From the NCBI RefSeq assembly GCF_002162835.1, contig NZ_MAAX01000154.1, positions 10,496-74,495 of the forward strand: a DNA stretch of 64,000 nt, given 5' to 3'. This stretch comes from Nonlabens dokdonensis (GTDB lineage Bacteria > Bacteroidota > Bacteroidia > Flavobacteriales > Flavobacteriaceae). Below, in pieces: positions 1,341 to 61,913 of the stretch. Each line of letters begins with the position of its first letter. Position 1 is the first letter of the stretch. Below the pieces are notes generated by a model that had not been told where the DNA came from, made no database searches, and saw only the letters and a list, made by a program, of their open reading frames with translations. The position numbers and the translations under genes are program-made.

Positions 1341-1356
1341 CGCTTTCGCGAAAGCG
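1341..1356. repeat. 16-bp palindrome CGCTTTCGCGAAAGCG (intergenic)
   Basis: Exact copy. Confidence 0.97.
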
Positions 1357-1385
1357 GTATCGCATCTATCTTTAAAGAAAAAATC

Positions 1386-1598
1386 ATGATTAAAGAAGGA
1401 ACAAAAGTTAAATGGAACTGGGGAAATGGAACTGCAGAAGGAAAAGTACAGTCTACATTTACTAAATCGGTAACCAGAACCATTGATGGAAACGAAGTGA
1501 CTAGAAAGGGTGAAGAAGGCAACAAAGCCTTATATATCAAACAAGACGATGGTGATAGTGTTTTAAAACTTGAAAGTGAAGTAGAACGTGTAGATTAA
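1386..1598 (+). CDS. DUF2945 / Hva1-type Tudor-like small protein
   Basis: KVKWNWGNGTAEGKV...VTRKG...YIKQDDG...LKLESEV pattern; ATG 1386 preferred over 1329, whose extension is the palindrome repeat. Confidence 0.75.
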   Translation: MIKEGTKVKWNWGNGTAEGKVQSTFTKSVTRTIDGNEVTRKGEEGNKALYIKQDDGDSVLKLESEVERVD

Positions 1599-1638
1599 TC
1601 AATTTTATTGATTAAATTTATCAAATAAATAATCCCTC

Positions 1639-1947
1639 TTGAATTTATTACAGACCATATCTCAACAAGTATTACAATCCAGCATTAGTAACATGATAGG
1701 GATGATATTCCTTACTATTGTTGTAATTGCTGCATGGTACTGGTTTGTCAAGAATCACAAGTCAGATGCTGATGATGCAAAAAGCAGGCTTGCCATAAAG
1801 ATAGATCGCAACGGTAAACACCGTTATGAGGTGATACCTAATTTTGGGAATAGTAATCTCAAATTTTGGATCAAGATTGTAATTGCAATTATTGCTTTAT
1901 TATTTTTATGGTTGCCGTTTAAACTTTTATTCCAACCTCAATACTAG
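1639..1947 (+). CDS. Hypothetical membrane protein (2 TM)
   Basis: Two hydrophobic segments; co-oriented with neighbours; start uncertain. Confidence 0.55.
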   Translation: MNLLQTISQQVLQSSISNMIGMIFLTIVVIAAWYWFVKNHKSDADDAKSRLAIKIDRNGKHRYEVIPNFGNSNLKFWIKIVIAIIALLFLWLPFKLLFQPQY

Positions 1948-1952
1948 TTGCC

Positions 1953-2570
1953 ATGGCAGAGCTTGTTAAGATTTACGAAGATAACCCCAATCAAAAAGAG
2001 TTAGCACGCATCGCCAAAGCCATGAAAAATGGTGCATTAGTCATTTACCCAACAGATACAGTGTATGGATTAGGTTGCGACATCACTAATAAAAGTGCTC
2101 TAGAAAAAGTAGCCCGTCTTAAAGGTGTAAAATTAGAAAAAGCCAACTTCTCTTTTATCTGTGAAGATCTAAGTAATTTGAGCGACTACGTAAGCCAGAT
2201 AGATTCCAATACATTTAAAATTCTTAAACGCAACTTGCCTGGACCATATACTTTTATACTTCCAGGAAATAATAACCTACCTACAGTTTTTAAGAAAAAG
2301 AAAACGGTAGGTATACGTGTTCCCGATAACAAAATTGCTGTAGAATTAGTGAAATTACTCGGTAATCCTATTATCTCCACCTCTATTAAAGATGAGGATG
2401 AGGTAATTGAATACACCACAGACCCTAGTCTTATTGTTGAAAAATGGGAACACCTAGTAGATTATGTTATTGATGCCGGTTATGGTGGTAATATAGGTTC
2501 TACGATTATAGATCTTACTGGAGACGAACCTGTTTTAGTAAGAGAAGGAAAAGGATCAACTGAATTATAG
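1953..2570 (+). CDS. L-threonylcarbamoyladenylate synthase family (Sua5/YrdC/YciO-like)
   Basis: IYPTDTVYGLGC, LPGPYTFIL, VGIRVP, STS, STIIDL motifs. Confidence 0.93.
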   Translation: MAELVKIYEDNPNQKELARIAKAMKNGALVIYPTDTVYGLGCDITNKSALEKVARLKGVKLEKANFSFICEDLSNLSDYVSQIDSNTFKILKRNLPGPYTFILPGNNNLPTVFKKKKTVGIRVPDNKIAVELVKLLGNPIISTSIKDEDEVIEYTTDPSLIVEKWEHLVDYVIDAGYGGNIGSTIIDLTGDEPVLVREGKGSTEL

Positions 2571-4106: not shown

Positions 4107-4122
4107 CGCTTTCGCGAAAGCG
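4107..4122. repeat. 16-bp palindrome (intergenic)
   Basis: Exact copy. Confidence 0.97.
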
Positions 4123-7977: not shown

Positions 7978-7993
7978 CGCTTTCGCGAAAGCG
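7978..7993. repeat. 16-bp palindrome (intergenic, just downstream of murA)
   Basis: Exact copy. Confidence 0.97.
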
Positions 7994-9318: not shown

Positions 9319-9403
9319 GAATAATTTTAATTGTAATTTTTAAAAATAAAGAACTTGGAGTGGTTTGTAAAGCGATCTACTGTGAAGTATTCACAAGTAA
9401 TGA

Positions 9404-9490
9404 ACAGTTGAAAGTCTCAGTTTTTAGTGGCAGGATTTAGTATTCAGTTTTCAGTGGCAGTAGGCAGTAATTAGTAGTTAGTAGTCAGAT
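9404..9490 (+). repeat. Degenerate 6-7-mer (YAG-periodic) tandem tract
   Basis: ctcagtt tttagtg gcag gatttag tattcag ttttcag tggcag taggcag taattag tagttag tagtcag. Confidence 0.7.
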
Positions 9491-9736
9491 TATTAAATTG
9501 TCATCATGCTGCATAGCGGAATCTCTTTGGGTCTTTCGCAAAATATTTAAGATGAAATGAATGCCGCTGTTTGTAAACCCTTTTTTAAGACGTATATCAA
9601 CTAGATTTTAAACGCTTTACAACTACCTACTAATGGGTATTTCTACCCAATTTTTAATCAAACGTACGAAATACCGCTCTTATTCAATTTAATTGCTATA
9701 AATTTCAAGAATCATTTGCTGCTGCAATGCTCCTTA

Positions 9737-9752
9737 TTACGGTTTCCCGTAA
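9737..9752. promoter_or_regulatory. Inverted repeat TTACGG-N4-CCGTAA at the head of the island
   Basis: Seen directly; function unknown. Confidence 0.35.
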
Positions 9753-9922
9753 AGGATATGGATTTTGAGGTTGTACTTTGGGCGGTGGAATGGTGAGTTG
9801 AATGTGCGCCTATCCCGGTAATTGATATAGGATAAAGTGTACGTTTGGGATTGTATAACGATTTAGCAATAATTATAGACGAACATTGTAACTTAAGGAT
9901 AAATCAATTTACAAAACAAATT

Positions 9923-10150
9923 ATGGGATTATTAGATGATTTAATGAAAAGCACGGAAAAAATGATTGATGAAATGGATTCTGGTTCTGAAAAGAGCAGA
10001 AGTCAATCTTTTCTTGAAGAATTCTGGGACAAGCGAAATGAGTTGCAAGACGCAAAAGACACTAGTTACGGAAATGAAAAAAAAGGAATAAGCCAACTTC
10101 TTGATTTATTCAACAGAAAAGGAAGAGACAACGATATGGAACCATATTAG
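9923..10150 (+). CDS. Small acidic hypothetical protein (75 aa from ATG 9923)
   Basis: MGLLDDLMKSTEK...; ATG preceded by an A-rich leader. Confidence 0.6.
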   Translation: MGLLDDLMKSTEKMIDEMDSGSEKSRSQSFLEEFWDKRNELQDAKDTSYGNEKKGISQLLDLFNRKGRDNDMEPY

Positions 10151-10188
10151 GAATTGACAAAAAGAAAAATGACTTTTAAATATTAAAT

Positions 10189-10866
10189 ATGGCAGAAGAA
10201 ATAAATAAAGGAGTAATTATGAAAACTCTGGATTGGACTTACGATAAAGCCGTAAGTGGTTTTCCAGGAATAGATTCCGCCTATGAAATGGCTGAAAATT
10301 ACTTAAAAAATCAACCAGACAAAATAAAGGCAGCGGATAGTTTAATCCGCTGGCAAAATACTAAATCCGGTACAAGTGGGTTTTTAGCAGGACTTGGAGG
10401 ATTTATAACTTTGCCTGTAACTATTCCAGCAAATTTAGCAAGCATAATGTATATTCAAATTAGGATGATTGCTGCAATCGCAGTTATTGGTGGTTATGAT
10501 TTGAAAGATGACAGAGTTAAGTCATTAATTTATGCTTGTATGACTGGTAACGCTGCTAAAGAAATTATTAAGGATGTTGGACTTGCAGCTGGTAAAAAAT
10601 TTGCTATAGTTGGAATTAAGAACATATCAACCAAAACAATTATTGCTATCAATCAAAAGGTTGGTTTTAGATTGATAACTAAATTTGGCGAGAAGGGAGT
10701 TGTAAATTTAGGGAAAGCCATACCGATTGCTGGTGGAGTAATTGGTGGCGCAATTGATTCCTACACTACTAACGTAATTGGTAACATAGCGAGAAATACC
10801 TTCGTAGGAAAAAAAGTTAAGTATTATCCGTATGTCACTATTTTTGGATATGATATTACTTACTAG
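10189..10866 (+). CDS. EcsC family protein
   Basis: LIRWQ...SGFLAGLGG..TLPVTIPA, QIRMIAAIA..GGYD, GKAIP..GGVIGG pattern. Confidence 0.85.
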   Translation: MAEEINKGVIMKTLDWTYDKAVSGFPGIDSAYEMAENYLKNQPDKIKAADSLIRWQNTKSGTSGFLAGLGGFITLPVTIPANLASIMYIQIRMIAAIAVIGGYDLKDDRVKSLIYACMTGNAAKEIIKDVGLAAGKKFAIVGIKNISTKTIIAINQKVGFRLITKFGEKGVVNLGKAIPIAGGVIGGAIDSYTTNVIGNIARNTFVGKKVKYYPYVTIFGYDITY

Positions 10867-10875
10867 GCGAAAATA

Positions 10876-11080
10876 ACTGTTGCTAAAAATGTATAAAAAC
10901 AATAAGGCAATTGTAGCAAAACCGAATGGTTCGGAAACATTTGCAAGGTTGCCAAATTTTTAAATTTGGCTTATTCAGAAAAAAAAGATTATAAGAAAAA
11001 TTAGAAATATGGCTTGTGCTAAACCGAGGTTTAGTGCTTCTTAATCGCCTACTTTTCATATACTAACCGTTGCCATTAAT
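10876..11080 (+). repeat. Inter-cassette spacer, family A (most complete copy)
   Basis: Imperfect terminal IR (tgtataaaaacaataaggc / gcctacttttcatatac), central GCCAAATTTTTAAATTTGGC 10951-10970, GGCTTGTGCTAAA 11011-11023, GTT at 11069. Confidence 0.7.
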
Positions 11081-11093
11081 TAGAACTAACTTT

Positions 11094-11609
11094 ATGAAAA
11101 CAATATTTCTTTTTCTTTTTAGTCTGCTGATTTTTACCACAAATAATTTTGAGATTAATAATGGGGAAGTTCTCTGGCGCAAAGTTAATCAACAATCGAT
11201 TTTAATTGAAACTCTTGAGGAAACTATGATTAAGTCTGGTAGATTTACTAATCTCACTATAACCGAAAATTTAATAACTGCTGAAATACAAAACTTACCA
11301 ATAGATTACAAAGGTGCTGGCGAATCCGAAATGTCAATACCAATGTACATTGCTCGCAGTTCTATTAATGCTTACATAGTGATTGAAATAAAAGAAAACA
11401 GATACAGAGTAACAGTCAAAAACATAAAACTAGTTCAAAATTATTCAGATGCTTTGAGCGAGCAAGGCGAAATAACAGCTCTTGAAGTTTATGCGTTGCG
11501 AAAGAAAAATACTGAGTTCAAAAAAGGATTTATGAAAAAAACTTCCAGAATCCTAGATCATACTTTCGAAAAGCTAATAGTGTTTGAAAATGATAATGGT
11601 AAGTGGTAA
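11094..11609 (+). CDS. Hypothetical secreted protein (DUF4468-like, tentative)
   Basis: Signal peptide MKTIFLFLFSLLIF; IEIKENRYRVTVKNI segment; ATG 11094. Confidence 0.65.
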   Translation: MKTIFLFLFSLLIFTTNNFEINNGEVLWRKVNQQSILIETLEETMIKSGRFTNLTITENLITAEIQNLPIDYKGAGESEMSIPMYIARSSINAYIVIEIKENRYRVTVKNIKLVQNYSDALSEQGEITALEVYALRKKNTEFKKGFMKKTSRILDHTFEKLIVFENDNGKW

Positions 11610-11618
11610 TTAATGAAT

Positions 11619-11740
11619 GTGCTACAACAACATAAAAAAATAATAGGCAATAAGTGCTTAATCAAATGAAAAAGGCACTTTTACGAGATCGCCAAATTTT
11701 TAAATTTGGCTAAAGAAAGATTAAAATAAAGCGATAATAA
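11619..11740 (+). repeat. Inter-cassette spacer, family A (left half only)
   Basis: GCTACAAC...aataggcaa, then an identical 20-mer GCCAAATTTTTAAATTTGGC at 11691-11710; right arm missing. Confidence 0.65.
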
Positions 11741-11752
11741 GAACTGAAAATA

Positions 11753-12244
11753 TTGAAAATAATAGTCAAAGAAATATCAAAAGGGTTAGATGACAATAAT
11801 TGGTTTAAAGAAATCACAAATTCTTTACAAGGTTTAGATTGTAAAAAATATGTTGAAGGACTAATAAATTTTTCTCAAAAAAAACAGAAGAGAAAAGTCG
11901 CTAAATTGCAAAATTTTATATTAAAAATTCTAGAAGAACAGTTTGTAGACTTTCAATGGCAAACTGAATTTAAAGTTAGTGAAAAAAGAGACGCAATTGA
12001 TATTTATGGAAAACGTGAAAATGATATTTTAATTATTGAATTAGATAAATGGAGAGCGGATCAAGTCGCAAAAAAACTAATTTCAAGAACTGCACTTTTA
12101 AAAGAAAATAATATAGGTTTTGTATCTTTATGTTATGCAGGAACACCAAGTATGAATAAGTCTGAATGTTTAAAATATTTTCAGTATGGAAATATAGTTT
12201 TAACTGAACTAAATAACTATTACGCTGGAATGATAATAGAATAA
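11753..12244 (+). CDS. Hypothetical protein with PD-(D/E)XK-like pattern
   Basis: TEFKV...DAIDIYG...IIELDKWRADQ; TTG start. Confidence 0.55.
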   Translation: MKIIVKEISKGLDDNNWFKEITNSLQGLDCKKYVEGLINFSQKKQKRKVAKLQNFILKILEEQFVDFQWQTEFKVSEKRDAIDIYGKRENDILIIELDKWRADQVAKKLISRTALLKENNIGFVSLCYAGTPSMNKSECLKYFQYGNIVLTELNNYYAGMIIE

Positions 12245-12440
12245 CTAACGACTAAAACGTATTAATCAAATATATCGTTAGTCACATAGTCAAAGTTAAG
12301 GTCTAATTCAAAAGAAGCCAAATTTTTAAATTTACCGATTTTCAATAGAAAGATAAATAGTAAAAATTGAAAAATTCGGCTTGTGCTAAATCGAAAAGTC
12401 AGTACATTTTTAAAAGCTACGAGCCATATGCAGAGATGTT
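12244..12440 (+). repeat. Inter-cassette spacer (short IR plus family A core)
   Basis: ACTAACGA/TCGTTAGT IR 12244-12282; GCCAAATTTTTAAATTT 12317-12333; GGCTTGTGCTAAA 12378-12390 at the same spacing as the first copy. Confidence 0.65.
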
Positions 12441-12475
12441 TTGCTTAAAACCTAAAATTATCAAATAAAACAATT

Positions 12476-13021
12476 GTGAGCGAAGAAAAAGATGAACTAA
12501 TAGATAAACTAACCAAACTCAGTGAAAAACCTGGAGGAAAACAAGCTGTGAGATATATCCTAAATACATTAGGAGCAGTTCCATTTGCTGGTGGAGCAAT
12601 TGCTGGAGCTGGACAACTTTGGGGAGAAAAAGAACAACAAAAATTTAATGACACATTGGCTGAATGGGCTGCAAAAACAGATAGTGATTTAAAAATAATC
12701 ACTAACAATATTGATAAATTACTTCAGACACCGACTAGAGCTAAACTGAGTTTATTAATGGGAGAAATTTTAGGAGATGAATTAGCTAAAGGTTTTTTAT
12801 CAAAACCAAATCAATACATACCAATTGCTTTACATAATCAAACTCTTAACGAATTAGAACCTTTTATTGAAAAGAGTTGGATTAAAATTCAACCTACTCA
12901 CAGTACCGTTCAAATGGGCGGTGGAAATCGAGTTGGAAATAACATTGAAGAATTAAAAAGACCATATGGTTTTGGTAGTACTTTTAATATCCAAATTAAC
13001 GAGTCATATTTTAATGATTAA
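12476..13021 (+). CDS. Hypothetical protein
   Basis: 181-aa ORF with GTG start; GAVPFAGGAIAGAG glycine-rich helix. Confidence 0.7.
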   Translation: MSEEKDELIDKLTKLSEKPGGKQAVRYILNTLGAVPFAGGAIAGAGQLWGEKEQQKFNDTLAEWAAKTDSDLKIITNNIDKLLQTPTRAKLSLLMGEILGDELAKGFLSKPNQYIPIALHNQTLNELEPFIEKSWIKIQPTHSTVQMGGGNRVGNNIEELKRPYGFGSTFNIQINESYFND

Positions 13022-13034
13022 AAAGAAAAAAACT

Positions 13035-13170
13035 TAAGCGCAATAATGGCGCGAAGTAATTGCTTGTTCTCGCCTACTTCTTAAAATCCTCGCGGATTTT
13101 CAGTTTGTTGCGTACTGGCTGAGTTTCGTGTTAACCCATGTAGCTACACATAGCCGAGACCTTTTAATGC
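13035..13170 (+). repeat. Inter-cassette spacer, family B
   Basis: taattgcttgttctcgcctacttc, AAAATCC-TCGC-GGATTTT hairpin 13083-13100, ends atagccgagacc. Confidence 0.6.
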
Positions 13171-13195
13171 AATTTTAAAGAAATATCGTGTATTT

Positions 13196-13918
13196 ATGAA
13201 AGAGAAAATAATTTATTTGACCGTCATATTTGGGTTACTCATTTTTATAGGATTTTTGATAGAAGTTGTTTTTTACGTAAATACTGCCTTGAATGATTTT
13301 GTGAGATTTCTGTTTGTATTACCTTGGATTTTAATAATTGGATTTTTCGTATACCGATTTATTAACAAAATTGATGATATTACCATTGGTACATTTGCAG
13401 GGGCATCTGTTTTAATAGGATTGCTATTATCAATCGTTACATTGATTTTAAACTTGTCTTTAGGTCTTGATAAAATAATTGAAAAGAATTATGTGGCAGT
13501 TTATGGAATAACAACAGGTTTTGATAGCCGTTCTGATAGCGAACAAGACATCAAACATAAAACAAACGTATATAAAATTAACGATAGCAGAGCGAAAAGG
13601 GAAATTAATAAAATGGAATATGTATATGAAGATGCTTCGACAAAAGAATTCTTGTTTTGGCAGACAGCATTTGCAAGCGGATTTGAACCAATCAATATAT
13701 CGGAATACAATGGCTCAAATTCCTTTGGTAAAATCATAACCTTATTTTTTACCGTAGGACCAATATTTATTCTTGAACTATTTATAAACGCTATTATGAG
13801 TTCTTGGATTTTATTTATAATACCGATTATAGGATTGTTTTTTAAGAGAATGCTTTTTGAAAAAGAATTGAAACCTTTTACAAACTACTTTACAAACAGT
13901 GTAAAAAAAACTGCATAG
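13196..13918 (+). CDS. Hypothetical multi-TM membrane protein
   Basis: 3 N-terminal and 2 C-terminal hydrophobic segments. Confidence 0.75.
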   Translation: MKEKIIYLTVIFGLLIFIGFLIEVVFYVNTALNDFVRFLFVLPWILIIGFFVYRFINKIDDITIGTFAGASVLIGLLLSIVTLILNLSLGLDKIIEKNYVAVYGITTGFDSRSDSEQDIKHKTNVYKINDSRAKREINKMEYVYEDASTKEFLFWQTAFASGFEPINISEYNGSNSFGKIITLFFTVGPIFILELFINAIMSSWILFIIPIIGLFFKRMLFEKELKPFTNYFTNSVKKTA

Positions 13919-14110
13919 AACAATGTATCTAAAAAATAGCGCAAGAAATTACAAAAAAGGTAACATGCACATTTCCAAGGCAACCAAATTTAAAATTTGG
14001 CTAATTGAAAAAATGATAATAAGAAAAGTAAAAAATACCGCACGTGCTTAATCCTAAAATCATTTTATAATTTACACGCTACGAGAAATATACAAGACCT
14101 TTGTCATTAA
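13914..14110 (+). repeat. Inter-cassette spacer, family A (diverged)
   Basis: aacaatgtatctaaaaaatagcg ... CCAAATTTAAAATTTGGC 13984-14001 ... cgctac...atatacaagacctttgtcattaat. Confidence 0.65.
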
Positions 14111-14122
14111 TAAACATCAAAC

Positions 14123-14629: not shown

Positions 14630-14635
14630 AATAAT

Positions 14636-15514: not shown

Positions 15515-15605
15515 TGCTTAACAAAGTACTATGGTAAAAAACAAATAAATCCTGATACGATACAAATAAGGAGCCGTTATTAAACATTAAAACAGAGATA
15601 AAAAA

Positions 15606-16309: not shown

Positions 16310-16324
16310 AGCATCAATTTTTCT

Positions 16325-49609: not shown

Positions 49610-49744
49610 TCTTTAAGTGATTCTCACAAGAATATGTCGCAACACTAGGTAACACAAGAAAAGTATTATGCAGTGAATACAATTATTATGCATGCATAAC
49701 ATAATTATCTAGTTATCAGATACGAAAGAAAATAATGCTAAACA

Positions 49745-49925
49745 ATAAAATCGATGAAATGCATGCCGTTTATCGAAAAATTGTATTTTGAACATATGTT
49801 AAGTTACTTAATTCATCGACAAAACACATATATTAATTAACATATGTTAATTAATTTAACTTTCAAAAGTTAAGTAATGATTAAACAAATCATAAAATCG
49901 ATGAAATGCACAATATAAATCGTGC
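49745..49925. promoter_or_regulatory. Repeat-rich operator region upstream of the T9SS gene
   Basis: 19-bp direct repeat ATAAAATCGATGAAATGCA at 49745 and 49892; ATCG half-sites 22 bp apart; 24-bp perfect palindrome 49832-49855. Confidence 0.7.
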
Positions 49926-49969
49926 TAATCTTTGAAACATAAAATATGGATATTTAACCTAGATTTTGA

Positions 49970-51199
49970 TCAATCAACATTCTTTTCTTCAATCCACTTG
50001 CTCAGATATTTATTAGCTTTTTGGGAATGATAAACAAGCATTTGTATACTAAACGAGCCTTCTAATGTGGTGTTATTTTTGTAGGAAAAAAGCAACTGCA
50101 CTCTTCCTAATAAAGCTTTCGCGAAAGCGGAATACGAATAAAACTCCTCCCATATTACCAAATTTTTACCGCTTAGAGCACACCAGTCATTCTCGTTATT
50201 ATAAACCTCTAAACATTTAGAAGCAAAAGCTTCAGGATTATCTTCTACAAATCCATAAGTATCTGATTTGTTAAACATACCTTCTGCTGCAATAGACGTC
50301 ATGGCTACAGGTGTATTTGCTTTCATGGCATCAAATATTTTTCCTTTTTGACCAGCACCAAAGCGCAACGGAGCTAATAGCAAGCGGTATTTACTTATAG
50401 TTTCTACTGCATCAACTGCATAACCTTTAATGATAAAGCCCAATTGAATGTCATTTAATTGATATATCGCTTGATTTTGGTATGCTCCATATACATGAAC
50501 TTCTACATTTGGGTTGTTTTTTCTAATTTTTGGCCATATAAAGTTTCTCATATAAAATATAGCATCGTAATTAGGCTTGTGCAAAGAATTGCCTATCATG
50601 ACCATATGTGACCTTTCTGAAAAAGTCGTGGCCTTTTCTCTGGCCGCCAGTATTTCTTTTTGATCGATTAAAAAAGGAATGTAAAATACCTTAGAGGCAT
50701 CCATGTCAAATGCGTCCAGTAATAATTGGTATTCTGTCAATGAAATAATCAAGGATAAATCGCATCTATGAATCGCGGCTATCTCGCGCATTGCTACCTC
50801 TGTATACAAATTTATTTTGTTATTTTTCTTAAATGCTTCTTCTCTAGCCTTCCTTAGAAAGTGTAAATCTTCTGTATCGAGTATATGTTTTGTGTGCGGA
50901 GCATTTTCTTTAACACGCCAGCTGTACTGCTCTTCCATCATAAATCGATCATACAGTACGACATCTGGTTGTAACTTTTGAATATAAGTGTCAAAAGAAG
51001 AGTTATTCAATTTTATTTCTTGTTCTGTAATATTTAATCCGGTTAAGTCTACCGAATAATCAGATTTTGCTGCGGCACTTGCAAAATGGACCTCATAACC
51101 ATCACTTTGAAAAATTTTCAATAATTGTAATAATCTAGTTCCAGCAGCGGTTGTGGTAGGTTCTGGCCAGTTATTTCCTATTACTAACAGTCGTTTCAT
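49970..51199 (-). CDS. Glycosyltransferase (GT-B, family 4-like)
   Basis: WPEP..TAAG, LDTEDLHFLR, HKPNYDA, APLRFGAGQKGK. Confidence 0.85.
   Translation of the reverse strand: MKRLLVIGNNWPEPTTTAAGTRLLQLLKIFQSDGYEVHFASAAAKSDYSVDLTGLNITEQEIKLNNSSFDTYIQKLQPDVVLYDRFMMEEQYSWRVKENAPHTKHILDTEDLHFLRKAREEAFKKNNKINLYTEVAMREIAAIHRCDLSLIISLTEYQLLLDAFDMDASKVFYIPFLIDQKEILAAREKATTFSERSHMVMIGNSLHKPNYDAIFYMRNFIWPKIRKNNPNVEVHVYGAYQNQAIYQLNDIQLGFIIKGYAVDAVETISKYRLLLAPLRFGAGQKGKIFDAMKANTPVAMTSIAAEGMFNKSDTYGFVEDNPEAFASKCLEVYNNENDWCALSGKNLVIWEEFYSYSAFAKALLGRVQLLFSYKNNTTLEGSFSIQMLVYHSQKANKYLSKWIEEKNVD
50114..50129. repeat. 16-bp palindrome variant (in glycosyltransferase, AFAKA)
   Basis: AGCTTTCGCGAAAGCG, 1 mismatch. 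Confidence 0.9.
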
Positions 51200-51464
51200 A
51201 CGACAAAGCTATACTTATTGTTTCATATATATGTAATTTGGTTTTTGAAATATTTGTAATGTGAAATGGAAAATGTCAATACAAACTGACGGTTCTGGTA
51301 CCGTGGCAGATAAGTAGAATAAAGTATCTTCATCGATTTTAGGGATTTTACAATAGCTTACTCATACTGAGTGGCTTTAAAATCTTGTTAATCTTATTAT
51401 CATATTTGCCCCATAAATACGAGGTAAAATATTTACTTTAGCATTTTAAAATTTAAATACTTCC

Positions 51465-52229
51465 ATGGGTAAAATAGTTGCAATAGCAAATCAAAAAGGT
51501 GGTGTAGGAAAAACAACAACAGCCGTTAATCTAGCGGCTTGTCTAGGTGTTTTAGAGAAAAAAGTATTGTTAATAGATGCTGATCCACAAGCAAATGCAA
51601 CTTCAGGTTTAGGGATAGATGTAGAGGCAATATCTCAAGGTACATATCAATTAGTTGAAAATTCTGTAGACCCTAGTGAGCTTATTTTATCCACAGACTC
51701 TCCTAACGTTGATATTATCCCAGCACATATAGATCTTGTTGCGATCGAGATTGAACTGGTTGATAAAGATCAACGCGAGTATATGATGAAGGAAGCCTTA
51801 AAAGAAATTAAAAAGAACTACGATTATATCATTATAGATTGTGCACCATCGTTAGGTTTACTAACTCTTAACGCGCTTACAGCTAGTAATTCTGTACTCA
51901 TTCCTATACAGTGTGAATACTTTGCATTAGAAGGTTTAGGAAAACTCTTAAACACAATTAAAAGTGTTCAAAAAATACATAATACAGAACTTGATATAGA
52001 AGGACTATTATTAACCATGTATGATAGTAGGTTGCGATTATCAAATCAAGTTGTAGAAGAAGTAAATCAACATTTTGAAGGGTTAACATTTAAGACAATC
52101 ATTCAAAGAAATGTACGTTTAAGTGAAGCACCTTCATATGGAGAAAGCATTATTAACTATGATGCATCTAGTAAAGGCTCAGAAAATTACTTGAGTCTAG
52201 CAAATGAACTTATACAGAAAAACGCTTAA
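51465..52229 (+). CDS. parA: Chromosome partitioning ATPase
   Basis: NQKGGVGKTTT, DADPQANAT, IIDCAPSLG, EYFALEG. Confidence 0.97.
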   Translation: MGKIVAIANQKGGVGKTTTAVNLAACLGVLEKKVLLIDADPQANATSGLGIDVEAISQGTYQLVENSVDPSELILSTDSPNVDIIPAHIDLVAIEIELVDKDQREYMMKEALKEIKKNYDYIIIDCAPSLGLLTLNALTASNSVLIPIQCEYFALEGLGKLLNTIKSVQKIHNTELDIEGLLLTMYDSRLRLSNQVVEEVNQHFEGLTFKTIIQRNVRLSEAPSYGESIINYDASSKGSENYLSLANELIQKNA

Positions 52230-52234
52230 GCACT

Positions 52235-53131
52235 ATGGCCAAGGCAACTAAGAAACAAGCGCTGGGAAGAGGACTATCTGCTCTATTAAAAGACCCTAGC
52301 AACGACATAAAATCGGCAGAGGATAAAAATGCCGATCAAATAGTAGGAAACGTGATCGATCTTCCTTTAAAGGATATAGACATGAATCCTTTTCAACCTA
52401 GAACCAGCTTTAATGAAGAGCACTTGCGTGAACTTGCCAGCTCAATAAGTGAACTAGGTGTGATACAGCCTATCACAGTGCGCAAAAAAGGATTTGGAAA
52501 ATATGAGCTGGTTTCTGGTGAACGTAGATGTCGTGCTTCAAAATTGCTCGGTATAGAAACCATTCCTGCATATGTGCGTATTGCAAACGATCAAGAATCT
52601 TTAGAAATGGCACTGGTAGAAAATATCCAGCGTCAAGATCTAGACCCTATTGAAATTGCACTTTCCTATCAGAGGTTAATTGAAGAAATAGACCTTACAC
52701 AAGAGCAAATGAGCGATCGTGTAGGTAAATCTCGTAGTGCTATTGCAAATTATTTAAGGCTTTTGAAATTGGATCCTATCATACAGACTGGTATGAGAGA
52801 TGGATTTATTTCTATGGGCCATGGTCGTGCTTTAATTAATTTAGAAAGTTTAGAGCAACAATTAGATGTATATCAAAAAATTCTTGCCGACAGCCTTTCT
52901 GTAAGAGAAACAGAGAAATTAGTTAAGGATTTAAAAGGAGGCACGCTTTCGCGAAAGCAAACTAAAAAGAACTCATTGCCAGAAAATGTGGCTGAGAAAA
53001 CAAGCCATTTGAATTCATTTCTGGACACCAAAGTTACTACTACGATGTCCAGCTCTGGAAAGGGAAAAATTACTATCAATTATGCCTCAAAAGCAGACTT
53101 TGAACGCATAGTAAAATTGATTAATGAATAA
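52235..53131 (+). CDS. parB: Chromosome partitioning protein
   Basis: LGRGLSAL, NPFQPR, GERRCRA, LVENIQRQDL, HTH GKSRSAIANYLRL. Confidence 0.97.
   Translation: MAKATKKQALGRGLSALLKDPSNDIKSAEDKNADQIVGNVIDLPLKDIDMNPFQPRTSFNEEHLRELASSISELGVIQPITVRKKGFGKYELVSGERRCRASKLLGIETIPAYVRIANDQESLEMALVENIQRQDLDPIEIALSYQRLIEEIDLTQEQMSDRVGKSRSAIANYLRLLKLDPIIQTGMRDGFISMGHGRALINLESLEQQLDVYQKILADSLSVRETEKLVKDLKGGTLSRKQTKKNSLPENVAEKTSHLNSFLDTKVTTTMSSSGKGKITINYASKADFERIVKLINE
52944..52959. repeat. 16-bp palindrome variant (in parB, LSRK frame)
   Basis: CGCTTTCGCGAAAGCA, 1 mismatch. Confidence 0.9.
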
Positions 53132-53708
53132 ATATTTATTTTACATATTTATATTTATTTGCTTTCAAGGATGGTCGCAAACAGATCCTGATACCACTGT
53201 GGATCTTAACGATATTATCGTGGCTAAAGACAGTATTTCCAGAGTTTATGATGCAAACCGCCCATCTAAGGCTGCTTTTTACAGTGCTGTGGTTCCTGGA
53301 TTAGGTCAAGCATACAATAAAAAATACTGGAAGATACCACTAGCTCTAGCAGCAGTAGGAATTCCTGTTTACGTATACACTGTAAATGATAAAGAATACA
53401 ACAGGTTTAGGGATGCTTTTAGAATACGTCTCGCCGGTGGTACTAATGACGAGTTCTCTAATGAAGATGGTACTCCCATAATTACTACAGCAGCTCTGGA
53501 AAGAGCACAAAGAAATTCACAGCGCAATAAGGAGTTGAGTATATTATTTACCGCAGGACTGTATGTGTTGCAAATAATTGATGCTAACGTAGATGGACAT
53601 CTAAGTCAGTTTAATGTAGATCGCAACTTGAGCGTTTTACCGTATATAGATTATAACACTCTTGCTATAGGAAACACCTACGGCTTTAATTTAAGTTATT
53701 CTTTTTAA
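53124..53708 (+). CDS. DUF5683 family protein
   Basis: PSKAAFYSAVVPGLGQAYNKKYWKIP, IIDANVDGHL. Confidence 0.85.
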   Translation: MNKYLFYIFIFICFQGWSQTDPDTTVDLNDIIVAKDSISRVYDANRPSKAAFYSAVVPGLGQAYNKKYWKIPLALAAVGIPVYVYTVNDKEYNRFRDAFRIRLAGGTNDEFSNEDGTPIITTAALERAQRNSQRNKELSILFTAGLYVLQIIDANVDGHLSQFNVDRNLSVLPYIDYNTLAIGNTYGFNLSYSF

Positions 53709-53709
53709 A

Positions 53710-54414
53710 ATGAAAATTGCACTTTTAGGTTATGGTAAAATGGGTAAAACCATTGAACGTATCGCGTTAGAACGTGGTCATAGTATCATAGCAAAGTTAG
53801 GGCGTAAAGATTCTATAATAGATGGAATTTCTAATGCCGATTTAGTCATAGAATTCACAAGTCCAGAGAGCGTTCTTGATAACCTTTACAAAGTAATTCC
53901 CACAGGTATCCCATTGGTTTGTGGTACCACAGGATGGAACGATCACCTAAGCGATATTGAAAAATTAGTAGCTGAAAATAATGGAAGTATGGTGCATGCT
54001 TCTAATTTTAGTTTAGGAGTAAATTTGTTTTTTGAGTTGAATAAAAAATTAGCTCAAATGATGCATTCTTTTCCTGAATATGATGTGAGCATGCAAGAAA
54101 TTCATCACACAGAGAAAAAAGATGCGCCTAGTGGAACTGCGATTACTTTGTTTGAAGGTATTTCAGAAAAATTAGATAAAAAAGAGTGGCATTTAGGTAA
54201 GCAGTCTAACGAGCAGTCTATTGCGATAGAAGCGTTGAGAGAAGAAGATGTAAAAGGAACTCATAGCGTTCTTTACAAAAACGAAATAGATAGTATAGAG
54301 ATTATACATAAAGCAAACACCAGAGATGGATTTGCACTAGGTAGTATCATTGCTGCTGAATGGATTAGTAATAAAAAAGGAATATATACCATGAAAGATG
54401 TTTTAGGATTGTAA
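53710..54414 (+). CDS. dapB: 4-hydroxy-tetrahydrodipicolinate reductase
   Basis: GYGKMG, GTTGW, EIHHTEKKDAPSGTA. Confidence 0.96.
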   Translation: MKIALLGYGKMGKTIERIALERGHSIIAKLGRKDSIIDGISNADLVIEFTSPESVLDNLYKVIPTGIPLVCGTTGWNDHLSDIEKLVAENNGSMVHASNFSLGVNLFFELNKKLAQMMHSFPEYDVSMQEIHHTEKKDAPSGTAITLFEGISEKLDKKEWHLGKQSNEQSIAIEALREEDVKGTHSVLYKNEIDSIEIIHKANTRDGFALGSIIAAEWISNKKGIYTMKDVLGL

Positions 54415-54453
54415 CAATCTTGAATCTTATCTTACATACTATAAAATAGTTAT

Positions 54454-56094
54454 ATGAGCTGGACAGAATGGTTAATCACATTTTTAGTAATCCAATTAAT
54501 ACACGGATTAGGAACATGGAAAATGTATGTGGCTGCTGGATTTAAAGCATGGCAGGCATTTGTACCTGTTCTCAATGCAGTTACATTAATGAAAATAATG
54601 AATAGACCTTGGTGGTGGACTATTTTACTATTTTTACCTGTAGTAAATATTATGATGTTTATTGTAATATGGGTGGATACCTTAAGGTCTTTTGGCTACA
54701 ATAAACCCAAGGATACTTTTTTGAGCGTTGTCACCTTAGGTTTTTACATCTACTATATCAATTACACACAACCTTTAAATCACATTAAAGAGAGAGAATT
54801 AACTCCTAGAACTGCTGCTGGAGAATGGACTAATTCTATTTTATTTGCGGTTATTGCAGCTACCATAGTGCATACCTATGTTATGCAACCATTCATTATC
54901 CCGACTTCTTCTTTAGAAAAAACGTTGCTTACTGGAGACTTTTTATTTGTAAGTAAGTTTCATTATGGAGCTCGATTACCTATGACTCCTATTGCAGCGC
55001 CCATGGTGCATGACACCATTCCTGTTTTAGGTGTAAAAAGCTATTTAGAACGTCCACAGTTGCCTTATATGAGATTGCCTGGTTTTCAAAAAATTGAAAG
55101 AAACGATATCGTTGTTTTTAATTTCCCTGCAGACTCTACTAATACGTATCCTTATGACGATGGAAAATATTATTATAAGCCCATCGATAAAAAGTCTAAT
55201 TATGTAAAAAGATGTGTTGCTATAGCTGGAGATAAAATGTCCATGAAAGATGGAGATATTTTTATTAATGGAGAATTGTTAATTCTCCCAGAGCGTGCAA
55301 AACCACAATTCATTTACAATGTAGTAGCACAACGTATAGACCTGATGGCAGATCGTGCCTATATGATTGAAAATTATGATATAACCGAGAATATACAACA
55401 ACCTGATAGAGATAATAATCCTAACGATTTACAGCTTACTGCTACAAGAGCAACTGTTGAGCGTCTTAAAAATGATGGGGTTATTTCTAGCTATGAGCGT
55501 AGAACGCTAGATGTAGGTGCACCATACAAACAATGGAGAAGAGATTTTAAGGATCCTGAAACTGCATTTTTAAAACCTAACGTTTTCCCGTACGACGGTA
55601 GAACTGGAAATAATAATGAGGATCGTGCAGAGTTTATTATTCCTGCAAAAGGTATGACAGTTGATATTGATCAAACTAATATCGCCTATTTTGAAAGAAT
55701 TATAGAGGTCTATGAAGGTAGTGAGATGAACATCTTTAACGACGTCACTTACAAAGGAAATGAGGTATTTCTTAACGGTAAGCCACTTACTTCATACACT
55801 TTCAAGCAAGACTACTACTGGCTCATGGGAGATAATCGCGGTAATAGTCTAGACAGTAGATTCTGGGGTTATGTACCTTTTAATCATGTAGTAGGAAAAC
55901 CAGTTTTTGTATGGATGAGTTACGATAGCAACAAGTCTTTTCCTAGTGGTTTTAGATTTGAAAGAATGTTTACCACCGTAAATGGATCTGGACAGCCTAC
56001 CTCTTATTTAGTATATTTCTTAGTCGTACTTGCTGGTTATTTTGTGGTAAGAAAGATTATGAAAAATAAGAAAGCTAATAAAGAGAAGTCTTAA
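54454..56094 (+). CDS. lepB: Signal peptidase I with N-terminal membrane (DUF5684-like) domain
   Basis: IPTSSLEKTL (catalytic Ser), YVKRC (Lys), MGDNRGNSLDSRFWG. Confidence 0.94.
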   Translation: MSWTEWLITFLVIQLIHGLGTWKMYVAAGFKAWQAFVPVLNAVTLMKIMNRPWWWTILLFLPVVNIMMFIVIWVDTLRSFGYNKPKDTFLSVVTLGFYIYYINYTQPLNHIKERELTPRTAAGEWTNSILFAVIAATIVHTYVMQPFIIPTSSLEKTLLTGDFLFVSKFHYGARLPMTPIAAPMVHDTIPVLGVKSYLERPQLPYMRLPGFQKIERNDIVVFNFPADSTNTYPYDDGKYYYKPIDKKSNYVKRCVAIAGDKMSMKDGDIFINGELLILPERAKPQFIYNVVAQRIDLMADRAYMIENYDITENIQQPDRDNNPNDLQLTATRATVERLKNDGVISSYERRTLDVGAPYKQWRRDFKDPETAFLKPNVFPYDGRTGNNNEDRAEFIIPAKGMTVDIDQTNIAYFERIIEVYEGSEMNIFNDVTYKGNEVFLNGKPLTSYTFKQDYYWLMGDNRGNSLDSRFWGYVPFNHVVGKPVFVWMSYDSNKSFPSGFRFERMFTTVNGSGQPTSYLVYFLVVLAGYFVVRKIMKNKKANKEKS

Positions 56095-56725: not shown

Positions 56726-57574
56726 ATGAACAACAACTTTGCGCGTTTTAAAGCATTTTATAAAACAGCAAGTTTGTGGTCTGGCTCTCTTTTAGGATTA
56801 CAACAGTTTCCTCTTAAAGAATTTGATTTTTCCTACCTTAATGAAGAAGAGGCATTAGAGTTACCTGCTATACCTCAAGGAACTGTATTAGGCAAAAGAG
56901 CTGAGTACTTTTTTAAATTTTGCATAGAAAAGTGTCAAAATTATGATCTAGTTCTTTCTAACGCTCAAATTTTTAATAAAAAAGTTACCATAGGAGAATT
57001 AGATTATATAGTACAAGAAACTACAACTGGCCAATTAGTTCATATTGAACTGGTCTATAAATTTTATATTTATAATCCAGATTTTCAATCTAGTGAGAAA
57101 GATGATCGTTTAATTGAATTAAGTAAATACAGAGGTCCTAACGGGAGAGATAACTTAATTAGAAAAATCAACCACCTTAAAAACCATCAACTTCCATTAC
57201 TTTATCATACAGAAACTGAGGCGCTTTTAAACTCTCATTCTATATCCATTGAAAACATAAAGCAGCAAGTATGTTTTCTAGCTCATGTATTTATCCCTCA
57301 TAAATTTTGGAATTTTAAATTCAAATACATCAATAAAGCATGTATTGTAGGTTATTATTTTAATATATCCGCTTTCGCGAAAGCGGAAACACAAAACACC
57401 TATTACCTACCAGAAAAATTTGCATGGAAAATGTCTCCTTACCCTACTGCCCTTGAACACACCTTTCAGGAAGTACTTGAAAGCGCTACACAAAGCTTGG
57501 AGCGAGGTTTTGCGCCGTTAGTATGGATGCAACTGGAAACAGGCAAATTCGAAAGATTTTTTATTGTTAAGTAA
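56726..57574 (+). CDS. DUF1853 family protein (PD-(D/E)XK-like)
   Basis: LGKRAEYFF, IGELDYI, HIELVYKFY, GPN.RD.L. Confidence 0.85.
   Translation: MNNNFARFKAFYKTASLWSGSLLGLQQFPLKEFDFSYLNEEEALELPAIPQGTVLGKRAEYFFKFCIEKCQNYDLVLSNAQIFNKKVTIGELDYIVQETTTGQLVHIELVYKFYIYNPDFQSSEKDDRLIELSKYRGPNGRDNLIRKINHLKNHQLPLLYHTETEALLNSHSISIENIKQQVCFLAHVFIPHKFWNFKFKYINKACIVGYYFNISAFAKAETQNTYYLPEKFAWKMSPYPTALEHTFQEVLESATQSLERGFAPLVWMQLETGKFERFFIVK
57370..57385. repeat. 16-bp palindrome (in DUF1853, AFAKA)
   Basis: Exact copy; extends to 20 bp. Confidence 0.97.
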
Positions 57575-59078: not shown

Positions 59079-59139
59079 ATTGAAATGTATTTCTTAATAT
59101 GAAGAGCTGCAAAATACGCAAAATAGTATTAATAATGAC

Positions 59140-59427
59140 TTAAAGTGAAATAACACCTTCAACTTTACTAACCTCTTTATATTTTGCGATGACAGCATCT
59201 GGGTTTTTCATGTTAACGACTATAGAAACACTGGTATAAGTTCCTTTACTAGATTGCTTTGTGTTTATAACCGCTCCGGTATTATTAAAAATATCTTCTA
59301 TATCTTTAATCTGAGTGCCTGAAGATGGCACTATAAACTTATACAAGTACTTTGACGGCCATAAACTAGTGTCTAAAAGTTGACTTTTTAACTTAGCATA
59401 AAACTCGTCTGATTTCTTTCTATCCAT
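59140..59427 (-). CDS. DUF493 (YbeD-like) family protein
   Basis: WPSKYLYKFIVP, SSKGTYTSVS, VEGVISL. Confidence 0.88.
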   Translation of the reverse strand: MDRKKSDEFYAKLKSQLLDTSLWPSKYLYKFIVPSSGTQIKDIEDIFNNTGAVINTKQSSKGTYTSVSIVVNMKNPDAVIAKYKEVSKVEGVISL

Positions 59428-59496
59428 AACTATTGTGCAAATATAATTAATGATACTATCGATTGCTATCCTTAGATTTAGTTATTTTGTAACCTT

Positions 59497-60024
59497 ATGG
59501 AAAAAACCAAACGAATTTTAATAATAGGTGGTCCTGGATCTGGAAAAACGAGCGTTTTACAAACGATTGAAAAGAACAATTTTAAGGTACATCACGAGAT
59601 TTCAAGAGAAGTGACTGCAAATGCTCAGAAGAGTGGCATAGAGCAACTTTTCCTTACTGATCCGTTTGCTTTCAGTAACCAGTTGCTCGATGGTAGAATA
59701 CAGCAATTTAAAAACGCTGCTTCAGGGATTAATTTTTATGATCGAGGCATTCCAGATGTACCTGCTTATCATGTTTTTACAGGAGATAAAATACCAGAAG
59801 TGTTTATGAAAGCCTGTAAAGAATATAGGTATGATCAAGTCTTTTTCTTACCACCGTGGGAAGAAATATATGAAAGTGATAATGAACGCTATGAAACTTA
59901 TGATCAAGCTGTAGTTTTAGGTGATATTTTATTAGATTTTTATAAAAAGTTAGACTACTCTCCTATCTCTGTACCTAAATCTTCTATTGAGAACCGCTAT
60001 AATTTTATCATAGAACAACTATAA
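59497..60024 (+). CDS. AAA_28/NadR-like small ATPase
   Basis: GGPGSGKTS, FYDRGIPD, FFLPPWEEIY. Confidence 0.88.
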   Translation: MEKTKRILIIGGPGSGKTSVLQTIEKNNFKVHHEISREVTANAQKSGIEQLFLTDPFAFSNQLLDGRIQQFKNAASGINFYDRGIPDVPAYHVFTGDKIPEVFMKACKEYRYDQVFFLPPWEEIYESDNERYETYDQAVVLGDILLDFYKKLDYSPISVPKSSIENRYNFIIEQL

Positions 60025-60026
60025 TA

Positions 60027-61913
60027 TTGATTGAAAAATCCTTACATATTCTCAAAAATAGATTTGGCTATGAGTCTTTTAGACCTCTTCAACAAGAAAT
60101 AATTTCTACGGTTTTAGAAGGTAAAGATTCCTTAGCACTGCTACCTACCGGTGGTGGAAAATCCATTTGTTATCAAATACCAGGTATACAATTAGATGGA
60201 ATATGTATTGTTATTTCACCCTTAGTGGCTCTGATTAAGGATCAAGTAGATCAATTGAAAAAAAAAGGTGTCAAAGCAAGCGGTATTACCGGTGGTATTT
60301 CCTATAGAGATCTAGATGACATCCTTGATAATTGTGTTTTTGGCAATTATGATTTTTTATATTTAAGTCCAGAAAGATTAAAGCAAGATTTAGTACAAGA
60401 ACGCATTCTTAAAATGAATGTTAACCTTATTGCAGTAGATGAAGCGCATTGCATTAGTGAATGGGGACATGACTTTAGACCAGCCTATCGAGAAATTAAT
60501 ATTCTTAGAGAGTTGCACCCACAAATTCCTGTGATCGCAGTTACAGCAACGGCTACAAAAGAAGTGCAGCAAGATATCATCTCCGTACTAGCACTTAAAA
60601 ATCCACAGGTGTTTAAATCCAGTTATGAAAGAGCTAATATTCATTACCATATCCTGAACACCGCAGATAAACGTCAGGCCCTTAAAAAATTCTATGCGCA
60701 ACATTCAGGTTCCAGCATAAGTTATGTACGTAGTAGAAAAAACGCAGTAGAATACAGTCTTTTACTACAGCAACAAGGTATAACTTCTGCATTTTATCAT
60801 GGAGGCCTTACTAACAAATTGAGATCTACCACGTCTGACGCATGGTTACATAATAAAACACAAGTTATTGTTGCGACAAATGCCTTTGGTATGGGAATAG
60901 ATAAACCAGATGTGCGCACTATAGTTCATTTACAGCTTCCTGATAGTATAGAAAGTTTTTATCAAGAGACCGGTAGAGCTGGTAGAGATGGTAAATTAAG
61001 CACGGCTCAGTTCATATATAATCGCAACGATATACAGCATGCTTATAATCAATTTGTAAAATCACAACCTACTGCAGCTTTTTTAAAATTCATTTATCGT
61101 AAGTTATCTAACTATTTAAGAATAGCGTTAGGAGAAGGTGAAGGAGATTCATTCCCATTATCATTCTCTCAATTTTGTAAAGCATATGATCTTAATGGGA
61201 TGCAGGCATACAGTGCCTTAAACGCCTTAGATCGCTTTAGTGTGATACAGCTCGCCCAAGGATTTCATAGACGGTGTAGTATCCGCTTTCGCGAAAGCGG
61301 AACACAAATAATTAACTTTGCACAACATAGACCTGAAGTTAACGCTATCATTCAATCCATTTTGCGAACTTACGGCAGCAGTAAAAACCAAACACTTCAA
61401 ATCAATCCATCACTTATTGCGACGAGAAGTAACACCAGCGAGGAGCTCGTTTTTGAAACTATCGATTTACTTCAAAGTCGTGAACTGATAGATGCTAGTA
61501 TTGTTCATACAGATTTGCAAGTAACTTATTTAATACCTAGAGACGATGATCGCACCATTAACTCCTTTTCTAAAGAACTAGAACGACAAAATCGCATACG
61601 TCTAGAAAAATTAAAATCTATTATACAACTGGTAACGGAAACAGATAAATGTATTAATAGGATGATATTAGAGTATTTCAATGAAGAGAACGTTTCAAAT
61701 TGTAATCATTGCAGCAATTGTTTAAAGTCAAGACACGAGACAGTAACAAGTTCTACCTTATTGAGATCAATAAAAGAAAAGCCGTTAAATATTCAAGAGA
61801 TTATAAGTGTTACAGGTGCTTCACAAGAGTCGGTAATTGTAGAAATTAAAAGACTATTAGAACAACAATTAATTATCCTGACAGATAATAATAAATACAT
61901 AGTAAATGAATAA
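60027..61913 (+). CDS. recQ: RecQ family ATP-dependent DNA helicase
   Basis: LPTGGGKS, DEAHCISEWGHDFRP, ATNAFGMGIDK, QETGRAGRDG, Zn-site C...CNHCSNC. Confidence 0.96.
   Translation: MIEKSLHILKNRFGYESFRPLQQEIISTVLEGKDSLALLPTGGGKSICYQIPGIQLDGICIVISPLVALIKDQVDQLKKKGVKASGITGGISYRDLDDILDNCVFGNYDFLYLSPERLKQDLVQERILKMNVNLIAVDEAHCISEWGHDFRPAYREINILRELHPQIPVIAVTATATKEVQQDIISVLALKNPQVFKSSYERANIHYHILNTADKRQALKKFYAQHSGSSISYVRSRKNAVEYSLLLQQQGITSAFYHGGLTNKLRSTTSDAWLHNKTQVIVATNAFGMGIDKPDVRTIVHLQLPDSIESFYQETGRAGRDGKLSTAQFIYNRNDIQHAYNQFVKSQPTAAFLKFIYRKLSNYLRIALGEGEGDSFPLSFSQFCKAYDLNGMQAYSALNALDRFSVIQLAQGFHRRCSIRFRESGTQIINFAQHRPEVNAIIQSILRTYGSSKNQTLQINPSLIATRSNTSEELVFETIDLLQSRELIDASIVHTDLQVTYLIPRDDDRTINSFSKELERQNRIRLEKLKSIIQLVTETDKCINRMILEYFNEENVSNCNHCSNCLKSRHETVTSSTLLRSIKEKPLNIQEIISVTGASQESVIVEIKRLLEQQLIILTDNNKYIVNE
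61284..61299. repeat. 16-bp palindrome (in recQ, RFRES frame)
   Basis: Exact copy; extends to 20 bp. Confidence 0.97.

Follow-up and report, generated by a model that had tools for sequence, protein, structure and literature searches.

A 16-bp palindrome iterated across the chromosomes of Nonlabens, Dokdonia and close relatives (Flavobacteriaceae)

The HIP1 palindrome of cyanobacteria is conserved and quasi-periodically spaced, its methylation has been found to raise transformation up to 100-fold, and it co-varies with DNA-uptake genes. In Riemerella columbina, a member of the same order as the organisms considered here (in another family), own DNA is preferred in transformation, but no uptake sequence is known. 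The present study concerns a 16-bp palindrome, CGCTTTCGCGAAAGCG, which is iterated in a 64,000-nucleotide stretch of DNA from Nonlabens dokdonensis (assembly GCF_002162835.1, contig NZ_MAAX01000154.1, positions 10,496 to 74,495). This whole stretch is referred to as the window, with positions counted from its first nucleotide. The palindrome constitutes a signal at the level of the DNA, restricted to Nonlabens, Dokdonia and their close relatives. In the literature searched, neither a genome-wide iterated signal of this type for Bacteroidota nor a published description of the palindrome itself was found, and the palindrome appears to be new.

Eleven exact copies of the 16-mer were found in the window (starting at 1341, 4107, 7978, 19268, 24160, 28039, 39134, 42528, 44719, 57370 and 61284), together with two copies carrying one mismatch (50114 and 52944) and two carrying two mismatches (18275 and 32276). 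These are the same 15 places, 11 exact and four near, that had been listed in a first-pass annotation of this DNA. With up to two mismatches allowed, dinucleotide-preserving shuffles gave a mean of 0.01 copies, and 0 of 100 shuffles reached 15. The window is AT-rich, with a guanine-cytosine (GC) content of 0.31–0.37, and an unbiased k-mer count returned the palindrome as its sole repeated GC-containing word; TCGCGA occurs there 15 times, in 14 cases within the palindrome. The copies are found in genes as well as between them, at a density of about one per 4 kb. A repeat search around the window copies revealed nothing in common past about 22 bp, i.e. no longer element. A check for co-occurring genes, confined to the 64 kb of the window, showed that its proteins include no transposase, REP-associated tyrosine transposase (RAYT; REP, repetitive extragenic palindrome), methylase or ComP-type receptor. 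The repeat search and the gene annotation agree with the earlier statement that the copies lack a longer shared element and a transposase, and the target duplication, also stated there to be lacking, was not seen either.

The LysA protein of the window is 97% identical to that of N. dokdonensis, and its close homologues are all from Nonlabens. When one genome per species was scanned for the exact 16-mer, at least 116 stretches were obtained. Among the matches listed, 103 of 116 were from Dokdonia (45), Nonlabens (32) or unnamed Flavobacteriaceae (26), many of these stretches holding two to three copies per 8 kb. The other 13 of the matches listed were single copies, two of them labelled Aquimarina and the rest from other or unrelated taxa, as expected by chance. 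Copies are not confined to the region of the window: they were found on many contigs and at far-apart positions in complete Dokdonia and Nonlabens chromosomes, for example at 880, 1384, 2152 and 2824 kb in the chromosome of Dokdonia sp. R86516. Nine gene-targeted Nonlabens loci, together about 190 kb and chosen without regard to the motif, contained 24 distinct cores, all exact. Across other marine Flavobacteriaceae, 80 loci centred on efp and totalling 927 kb contained zero 14-mer cores and two one-off variants, and no alternative iterated palindrome was detected in them.

The anatomy of the signal was derived from the window pooled with loci of the clade (designated L and a number), 845 kb in total. 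In this pool the 16-mer occurred 156, 38, 15 and 11 times with zero, one, two and three mismatches, compared with chance levels of about 0, 0.002, 0.06 and 1. Of the 38 single mismatches, 29 lay at the two outermost positions, which leaves the 14-mer GCTTTCGCGAAAGC as the hard core; few intermediates were found. The full palindrome can be written (C)GCTTTCGCGAAAGC(G), 14–16 bp in length with weaker symmetric flanks, for which T[A/C] is preferred on the left and [T/G]A on the right. In the non-coding copies, a fraction of 0.85 have T at position -2; A or C stands at position -1, and the right side mirrors this pattern. Over about 12 nt the left flank is T-rich and C-poor and the right flank is A-rich and G-poor. 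The biased flanks mentioned in the first-pass annotation are therefore real, and the bias is symmetric. Complementarity between symmetric flank positions was no higher than base frequencies predict, indicating that it is the sequence that is kept and not base-pairing.

The half-site fragments GCGAAA, CGAAAG and GAAAGC showed no enrichment in the DNA outside the motif; the signal consists of the palindrome as a whole. Taken with the sequence-specific flanks, these results suggest that a symmetric, probably dimeric, protein recognises the palindrome in double-stranded DNA. In the window and the Nonlabens loci L240–L248, with the motif masked, TCGCGA was observed 10 times (18.7 expected) and CGCG 150 times (225 expected), and TCGCGA had the lowest observed/expected ratio among the palindromic hexamers with a meaningful expectation.

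Orthologous sequences with and without the motif were of equal length. In tsaE, CGCTTTCGCGAAAGCG in L100 aligns with AGCACATTTAAAATCA in the window, and in the DUF5683 gene a Dokdonia copy aligns with an unrelated window sequence of about equal length. The LpxD-like protein carries SAFAKAE in a variable interdomain linker, with no extra length relative to about 60 orthologues. RecQ-family helicases of other genera have LFKVS, QFIVS or LFTVT, ungapped, at the columns of the motif-encoded RFRES, which was absent without length change from 57 such orthologues. Decay also proceeds by point substitution, as in CGCTTTCGCATAAGCA of L062 and in the AFAQA variant of N. ulvanivorans lysA. No target duplication was seen at the copies, and this, together with the equal lengths, excludes transposition and in-frame insertion. 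The copies are made by base substitution in place, both in spacers and where proteins are variable.

Once formed, the copies persist within a genus. Orthology was assessed at the protein level and with gene-targeted syntenic loci, the window being 71–81% identical in nucleotide sequence to six other Nonlabens species. In 16 orthologous site comparisons, identity was 0.97 within the motif and 0.76 across the adjoining 60 nt to either side, a degree of conservation above neutral expectation. The sites at 7978, 39134, 42528, 44719, 50114, 52944, 57370 and 61284 have counterparts at identical places in other species. Among 63 Nonlabens-type RecQ orthologues, with amino-acid identities down to 53%, all 63 have RFRES or a one-residue variant of it (RFRES in 52, SFRES, a tolerated outer-position change, in 9, and RFCES or RFREN in 2), while the surrounding segment is highly variable. 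Retention of RFRES amid such variable surroundings shows that constraint on the DNA itself holds the synonymous positions. Three cross-genus cases were seen (DUF1853, parB and L051/L111), and in all of them the Dokdonia and Nonlabens motifs lie at different places of orthologous genes; the sites are stable within a genus but are not the same between genera. Substitution in place, retention at orthologous positions and the lack of a longer repeat all back the proposal of the first-pass annotation that the palindrome is a chromosomal signal at the sequence level.

Retention differed between species. In N. ulvanivorans five copies were decayed and two intact, compared with none and nine in N. dokdonensis (Fisher P=0.005), and upkeep may be weaker in the lineage of N. 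ulvanivorans and N. arenilitoris. If so, these species offer a useful contrast for finding the cognate gene. When N. ulvanivorans and N. arenilitoris (L243, L245, L246 and L247) were compared with N. dokdonensis or the window, more decayed copies were likewise counted in the former (Fisher P=0.002–0.005). It was also observed that one orthologous copy in these sister species (L246:4079 and L247:4080) reads GCTTCCGCGAAAGC in the first and GCTTTCGCGGAAGC in the second, i.e. with different single mismatches at mirror-image positions, which may reflect an ancestral symmetric double variant or correction from arm to arm.

The copies are also evenly spaced. The coefficient of variation of the gaps in the window was 0.52, more even than random (P=0.006), and 0.40 (P=0.0002) when a low-GC block was left out. 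The largest inter-copy gap stems from this block (9400–17300; GC 0.31), which holds zero copies and small hypothetical genes, including GIY-YIG/DUF4357, EcsC, bPH, cysteine-rich CPCC and small helix-turn-helix genes; it is probably an acquired island. Two accessory blocks of 10 kb in N. ulvanivorans and N. arenilitoris also held zero copies, as did the two very large adhesin-like genes seen. Copies are lacking in recently acquired DNA. As a separate observation, a murA-like gene lies directly before the DUF4290-DUF493-AAA_28-recQ cluster in N. ulvanivorans and N. arenilitoris (L246/L247), while about 49 kb separate the two in the window (9318–58410) and in N. dokdonensis. This difference indicates a large rearrangement or insertion, the breakpoints of which carry no motif copy.

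The gene content of the window is of a housekeeping type (a murA-like gene, panB, lpxD, efp, tsaE, ald, aroB, sucCD, lysA, parAB, dapB, lepB, recQ and fmt), and 9 of the 15 copies lie within real coding sequence. Seven of these nine share the frame xxC GCT TTC GCG AAA GCG, encoding (S/L)AFAKA or a one-residue variant, and the remaining two are read as RFRES (recQ) and TLSRK (parB), one copy each. Among pooled coding copies, 67 of 108 were in the AFAKA frame. Intergenic regions were enriched, with 6 of the 15 copies although the coding fraction is 0.865 (P=0.01), and the intergenic copies were found in tandem, divergent and convergent contexts. A function at the peptide level could be rejected, since intergenic copies and three reading frames have one DNA word in common. 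A transcription-factor regulon was also rejected, the perfect sites being too numerous and located chiefly in coding sequence.

The exact copy at 1341–1356 is intergenic, between an aldehyde dehydrogenase gene and a Hva1_TUDOR gene, and that at 4107–4122 lies between genes for an alpha/beta hydrolase and a CDP-alcohol phosphatidyltransferase. The exact copy at 7978–7993 is located 15 nt 3' of the stop codon of an EPSP_synthase-family gene; it is kept in L031:4904 and L246/L247:6877, and it is this site that has decayed to CGCTTTCGCATAAGCA in L062. The copy at 18275–18290 (ATCTTTCGCGAAAGCG), between convergent genes, has its two mismatches at outer positions 1–2. At 19268–19283 an exact copy reads LAFAKA in the signal peptide (cleavage ..|YSQQ) of a 158-aa protein, and the orthologous copy at L031:7497 differs by one mismatch. 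SAFAKA is encoded by the exact copies at 24160–24175, within a 672-aa open reading frame of the minus strand, and at 28039–28054, in the linker that joins the N-terminal domain of the LpxD-like protein to its hexapeptide repeats. The copy with two mismatches at 32276–32291 (TGCTTTCGCGTAAGCG) reads LAYAKA in an HD-domain gene.

The exact copy at 39134–39149 is intergenic, between the divergently oriented genes for proline dehydrogenase and aroB; N. dokdonensis, MB-3u-79, Ci31 and N. arenilitoris all retain it, and it has one mismatch in N. ulvanivorans. Codons 34–39 of lysA (42528–42543, exact, SAFAKA) are exact in four other Nonlabens species, with the single core mismatch giving AFAQA in both N. 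ulvanivorans and N. arenilitoris. Between the convergent genes for DUF808 and a 1554-aa cargo protein of the type IX secretion system (T9SS), the exact copy at 44719–44734 is kept in N. dokdonensis (L240:14294). The glycosyltransferase copy at 50114–50129 (SAFAKA; one mismatch, at outer position 1) is exact in N. dokdonensis, and its core is retained in MB-3u-79. In the parB linker, the copy at 52944–52959 (TLSRK frame; one mismatch, at outer position 16) retains its core in N. dokdonensis and MB-3u-79 and is absent from Dokdonia L103. The exact copy at 57370–57385 (DUF1853 gene, SAFAKA) is kept in N. dokdonensis and also in N. tegetincola, despite a local amino-acid identity of 47%. The exact copy at 61284–61299 provides the RFRES frame of the RecQ-family helicase gene.

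Some further features of the window were recorded. Three tandem units of 222 nt (19707–20378; the others are 98% and 76% identical to the first) sit between a gene for a small secreted protein and a gene with fn3, DUF7619 and a T9SS tail. Genes for T9SS-tailed cargo proteins lie at 20559–22241 and 44945–49609. A response-regulator receiver is fused to a PglZ domain at 33402–34952, an architecture known from PorX-type regulators of type IX secretion. Metatranscriptome cover of the window consisted of sparse assembled contigs only. Metagenome contigs aligned to positions 36001–56000 showed depth spikes and false 'joints' at each copy, because contigs from other loci align through the motif alone; an iterated word of this type can mislead read-mapping summaries.

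In phages the signal was unevenly distributed. The lytic Nonlabens phage P12024S (35.7 kb) contained zero copies even with two mismatches allowed. In IMG/VR, 42 stretches with the 16-mer were found, which belong to a few families of related contigs with two to six copies each at conserved places. PHROGs confirmed these as phage contigs, with portal, large terminase, sheath, baseplate and major head proteins, and the copies are located inside portal and terminase genes. One motif-bearing family carries an integrase, and at least one motif-bearing lineage is therefore probably temperate. With P12024S empty and the integrase family filled, the signal is missing in the lytic phage checked and present in some lineages. 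A phage contig of 37 kb (UViG_3300040781_000495; GC 0.42–0.48), with copies noted at L138:4125 and L138:5885 and at L155:1287, 7847 and 9086, holds at least six copies, some of them within its portal and large-terminase genes. They use frames other than the AFAKA preferred by the host.

The explanation proposed here, with a probability of roughly 0.4, is that the palindrome marks DNA as belonging to the species and promotes uptake and/or recombination of such DNA in natural transformation, in the manner of HIP1, the uptake signal sequence (USS) or the DNA uptake sequence (DUS). A symmetric dimeric protein would read the palindrome on duplex DNA, possibly with involvement of methylation at the central TCGCGA or CGCG. 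Alleles with an intact copy would then be over-transmitted, and lost copies could be restored from conspecific DNA. The palindrome shares with this class of signals a GC-rich core with AT-rich flanks, an origin in place, a frame bias and a location in variable protein segments; it is likewise enriched between genes, evenly spaced and missing from foreign DNA and the lytic phage. Several points weigh against this proposal. Nonlabens and Dokdonia are not known to be naturally competent, and known USS and DUS are not palindromic, have cores of 9–12 bp and are 3–4 times denser. The depletion of TCGCGA outside the motif (10 observed for 18.7 expected) is weak, retention of the sites looks tighter than that of USS, and all of the sequence features are also compatible with a binding site that structures the chromosome.

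A more general statement falls just short of even odds: that an undescribed sequence-specific system of marine Flavobacteriaceae targets the palindrome. It could be either the first uptake or recombination signal known from Bacteroidota, unusually long and palindromic, with a dimeric and perhaps methylation-sensitive receptor, or a new chromosome-wide architectural array, and a DNA word would in both cases override protein evolution at hundreds of codon positions. Among the four candidates named by the first-pass annotation, a DUS-like and a HIP1-like signal fit the present data and a broader site for a nucleoid protein remains, while a minimal REP and a parS-type site have fallen. The coding-frame bias, the conservation across species, the even spacing and the confinement to a single clade had gone unnoticed in that annotation.

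The strongest competing explanation is that the copies form an array of binding sites for a dimeric chromosome-structuring or nucleoid-associated protein, which would organise or mark the chromosome at intervals of about 4 kb. Weak purifying selection, acting in marine populations of very large size, would preserve each site. The perfect palindrome of a length usual for dimer sites, with the whole palindrome as the unit, the even spacing and the very tight retention of individual sites would all be expected of such an array, and the periodicity of HIP1 has been interpreted likewise. However, at the density of the window a genome of 3–4 Mb would contain some hundreds of copies. This is far above the numbers in the parS, Noc-binding site (NBS), SBS and matS systems. 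Moreover, copies are also held by phage portal and terminase genes, the sampled copies show no regional bias and no candidate protein is known. This explanation is considered rather unlikely.

Less probable still is a repair process, either linked to methylation or otherwise sequence-specific, as in Elhai's model for HIP1. A methylase and a mismatch nuclease would revert one-off variants to the palindrome, the abundance and conservation of which would be mere by-products. The centre of the motif (TCGCGA/CGCG) is a typical methylase target, both words are mildly depleted outside the motif and internal one-off variants are rare, all of which would suit this model, as would the larger number of decayed copies in N. 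ulvanivorans and N. arenilitoris than in N. dokdonensis, as if upkeep had weakened there. On the other hand, a specificity of 14–16 bp, with flanks to about 22 bp, is far past that of known very-short-patch systems, and the window encodes no methylase. A bias acting on all cellular DNA should also have marked the lytic phage P12024S, which has no copy, and even spacing is not produced by repair alone.

Spread of a very short mobile element by transposition, be it a REP/RAYT system, a miniature inverted-repeat transposable element or an in-frame insertion like the Rickettsia palindromic element, is very improbable: the palindromic form, the hundreds of copies and the clade specificity resemble those of REPs, but 9 of the 15 copies are genic, sequences with and without the motif have the same length with no target duplication and no added residues, there is neither a longer shared element nor a transposase or RAYT gene in the window, and the copies are old and orthologous rather than recent. 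A minimal REP in particular was rejected, as most copies are genic and show no insertion polymorphism and no 5' head sequence.

An RNA hairpin acting as a transcription terminator or mRNA stabiliser has equally little to recommend it, although the copies at 7978, 18275 and 44719 lie just past stop codons and the 22-mer can form, as DNA, a 9-bp stem of -8.4 kcal/mol by nearest-neighbour folding (a model that does not include the special GCGAAAGC mini-hairpin). Most copies are in coding sequence, the intergenic contexts are mixed (divergent, tandem and convergent), the flanks lack compensatory covariation and the palindrome had no match in Rfam at gathering thresholds. On both strands T-rich sequence precedes the motif and A-rich sequence follows it, opposite to what a terminator requires, and a terminator was rejected on account of this polarity.

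Nor is it credible that the copies are parS or Noc-type sites for the ParB protein of the window: they are palindromes of 16 bp and one of them lies within parB, and no canonical parS occurs within 64 kb of parAB (51465–53131) with up to three mismatches, but half-sites agree with the parS consensus (TGTTNCACGTGAAACA) at only 3 of 8 positions, one copy per 4 kb is found on many contigs, Dokdonia parB holds no copy, and a motif-bearing Flavobacteriaceae contig contains a perfect canonical TGTTTCACGTGAAACA (L017:414), 133 bp from a motif copy. The parS reading was rejected since the sequence is different, the copies are far too many and canonical parS coexists in the clade.

The self-DNA preference seen in the transformation of Flavobacteriales is without a known sequence basis. 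As a 16-bp word that can easily be synthesised, does not extend beyond two cultivable genera and keeps to fixed sites, the palindrome provides a direct handle for uptake assays, pull-down of the reader, methylomes and better genetic tools for marine flavobacteria. The palindrome also offers an independent second case in which general explanations of HIP1 can be tested. In addition, it illustrates clearly how a constraint on the DNA can fix peptide segments (AFAKA, RFRES) in unrelated proteins.

In comparison with known systems, the likeness to REPs, including bacterial interspersed mosaic elements with RAYT, is limited to the short palindromic form, the clade specificity and the hundreds of copies. 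REPs are extragenic and imperfect, have a conserved 5' head and spread by insertion, whereas the copies described here are mostly genic, perfect and length-neutral. The parS and Noc-binding sites are likewise perfect palindromes of 14–16 bp read by dimers, but they have another sequence, are regionally biased and number from a few to about a hundred copies.

The USS of Pasteurellaceae and the DUS of Neisseriaceae are closer. As here, a GC-rich core is flanked by AT-rich sequence in an AT-rich genome, and copies come about through point substitutions at existing positions, show a frame bias and occupy variable segments of proteins. Intergenic regions are enriched in copies, the spacing is even and foreign DNA has few. 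The USS and DUS differ in having asymmetric cores of 9–12 bp at about one per kb, in proven competent species with a measured uptake bias, while the signal of Nonlabens and Dokdonia is palindromic, longer and sparser. HIP1 (GCGATCGC) is also a GC-rich perfect palindrome, over-represented in one clade in genes and intergenic regions, conserved at orthologous positions with non-random spacing, and not mobile. It is 8 bp long, compared with a core of 14–16 bp here, and occurs up to once per gene, compared with about once per 4–5 kb. HIP1 is moreover cyanobacterial and of another sequence, and no cognate methylase is known for the Bacteroidota palindrome. The palindrome is thus an analogue of HIP1 and not HIP1 itself, and it is a member neither of HIP1 nor of the USS/DUS class.

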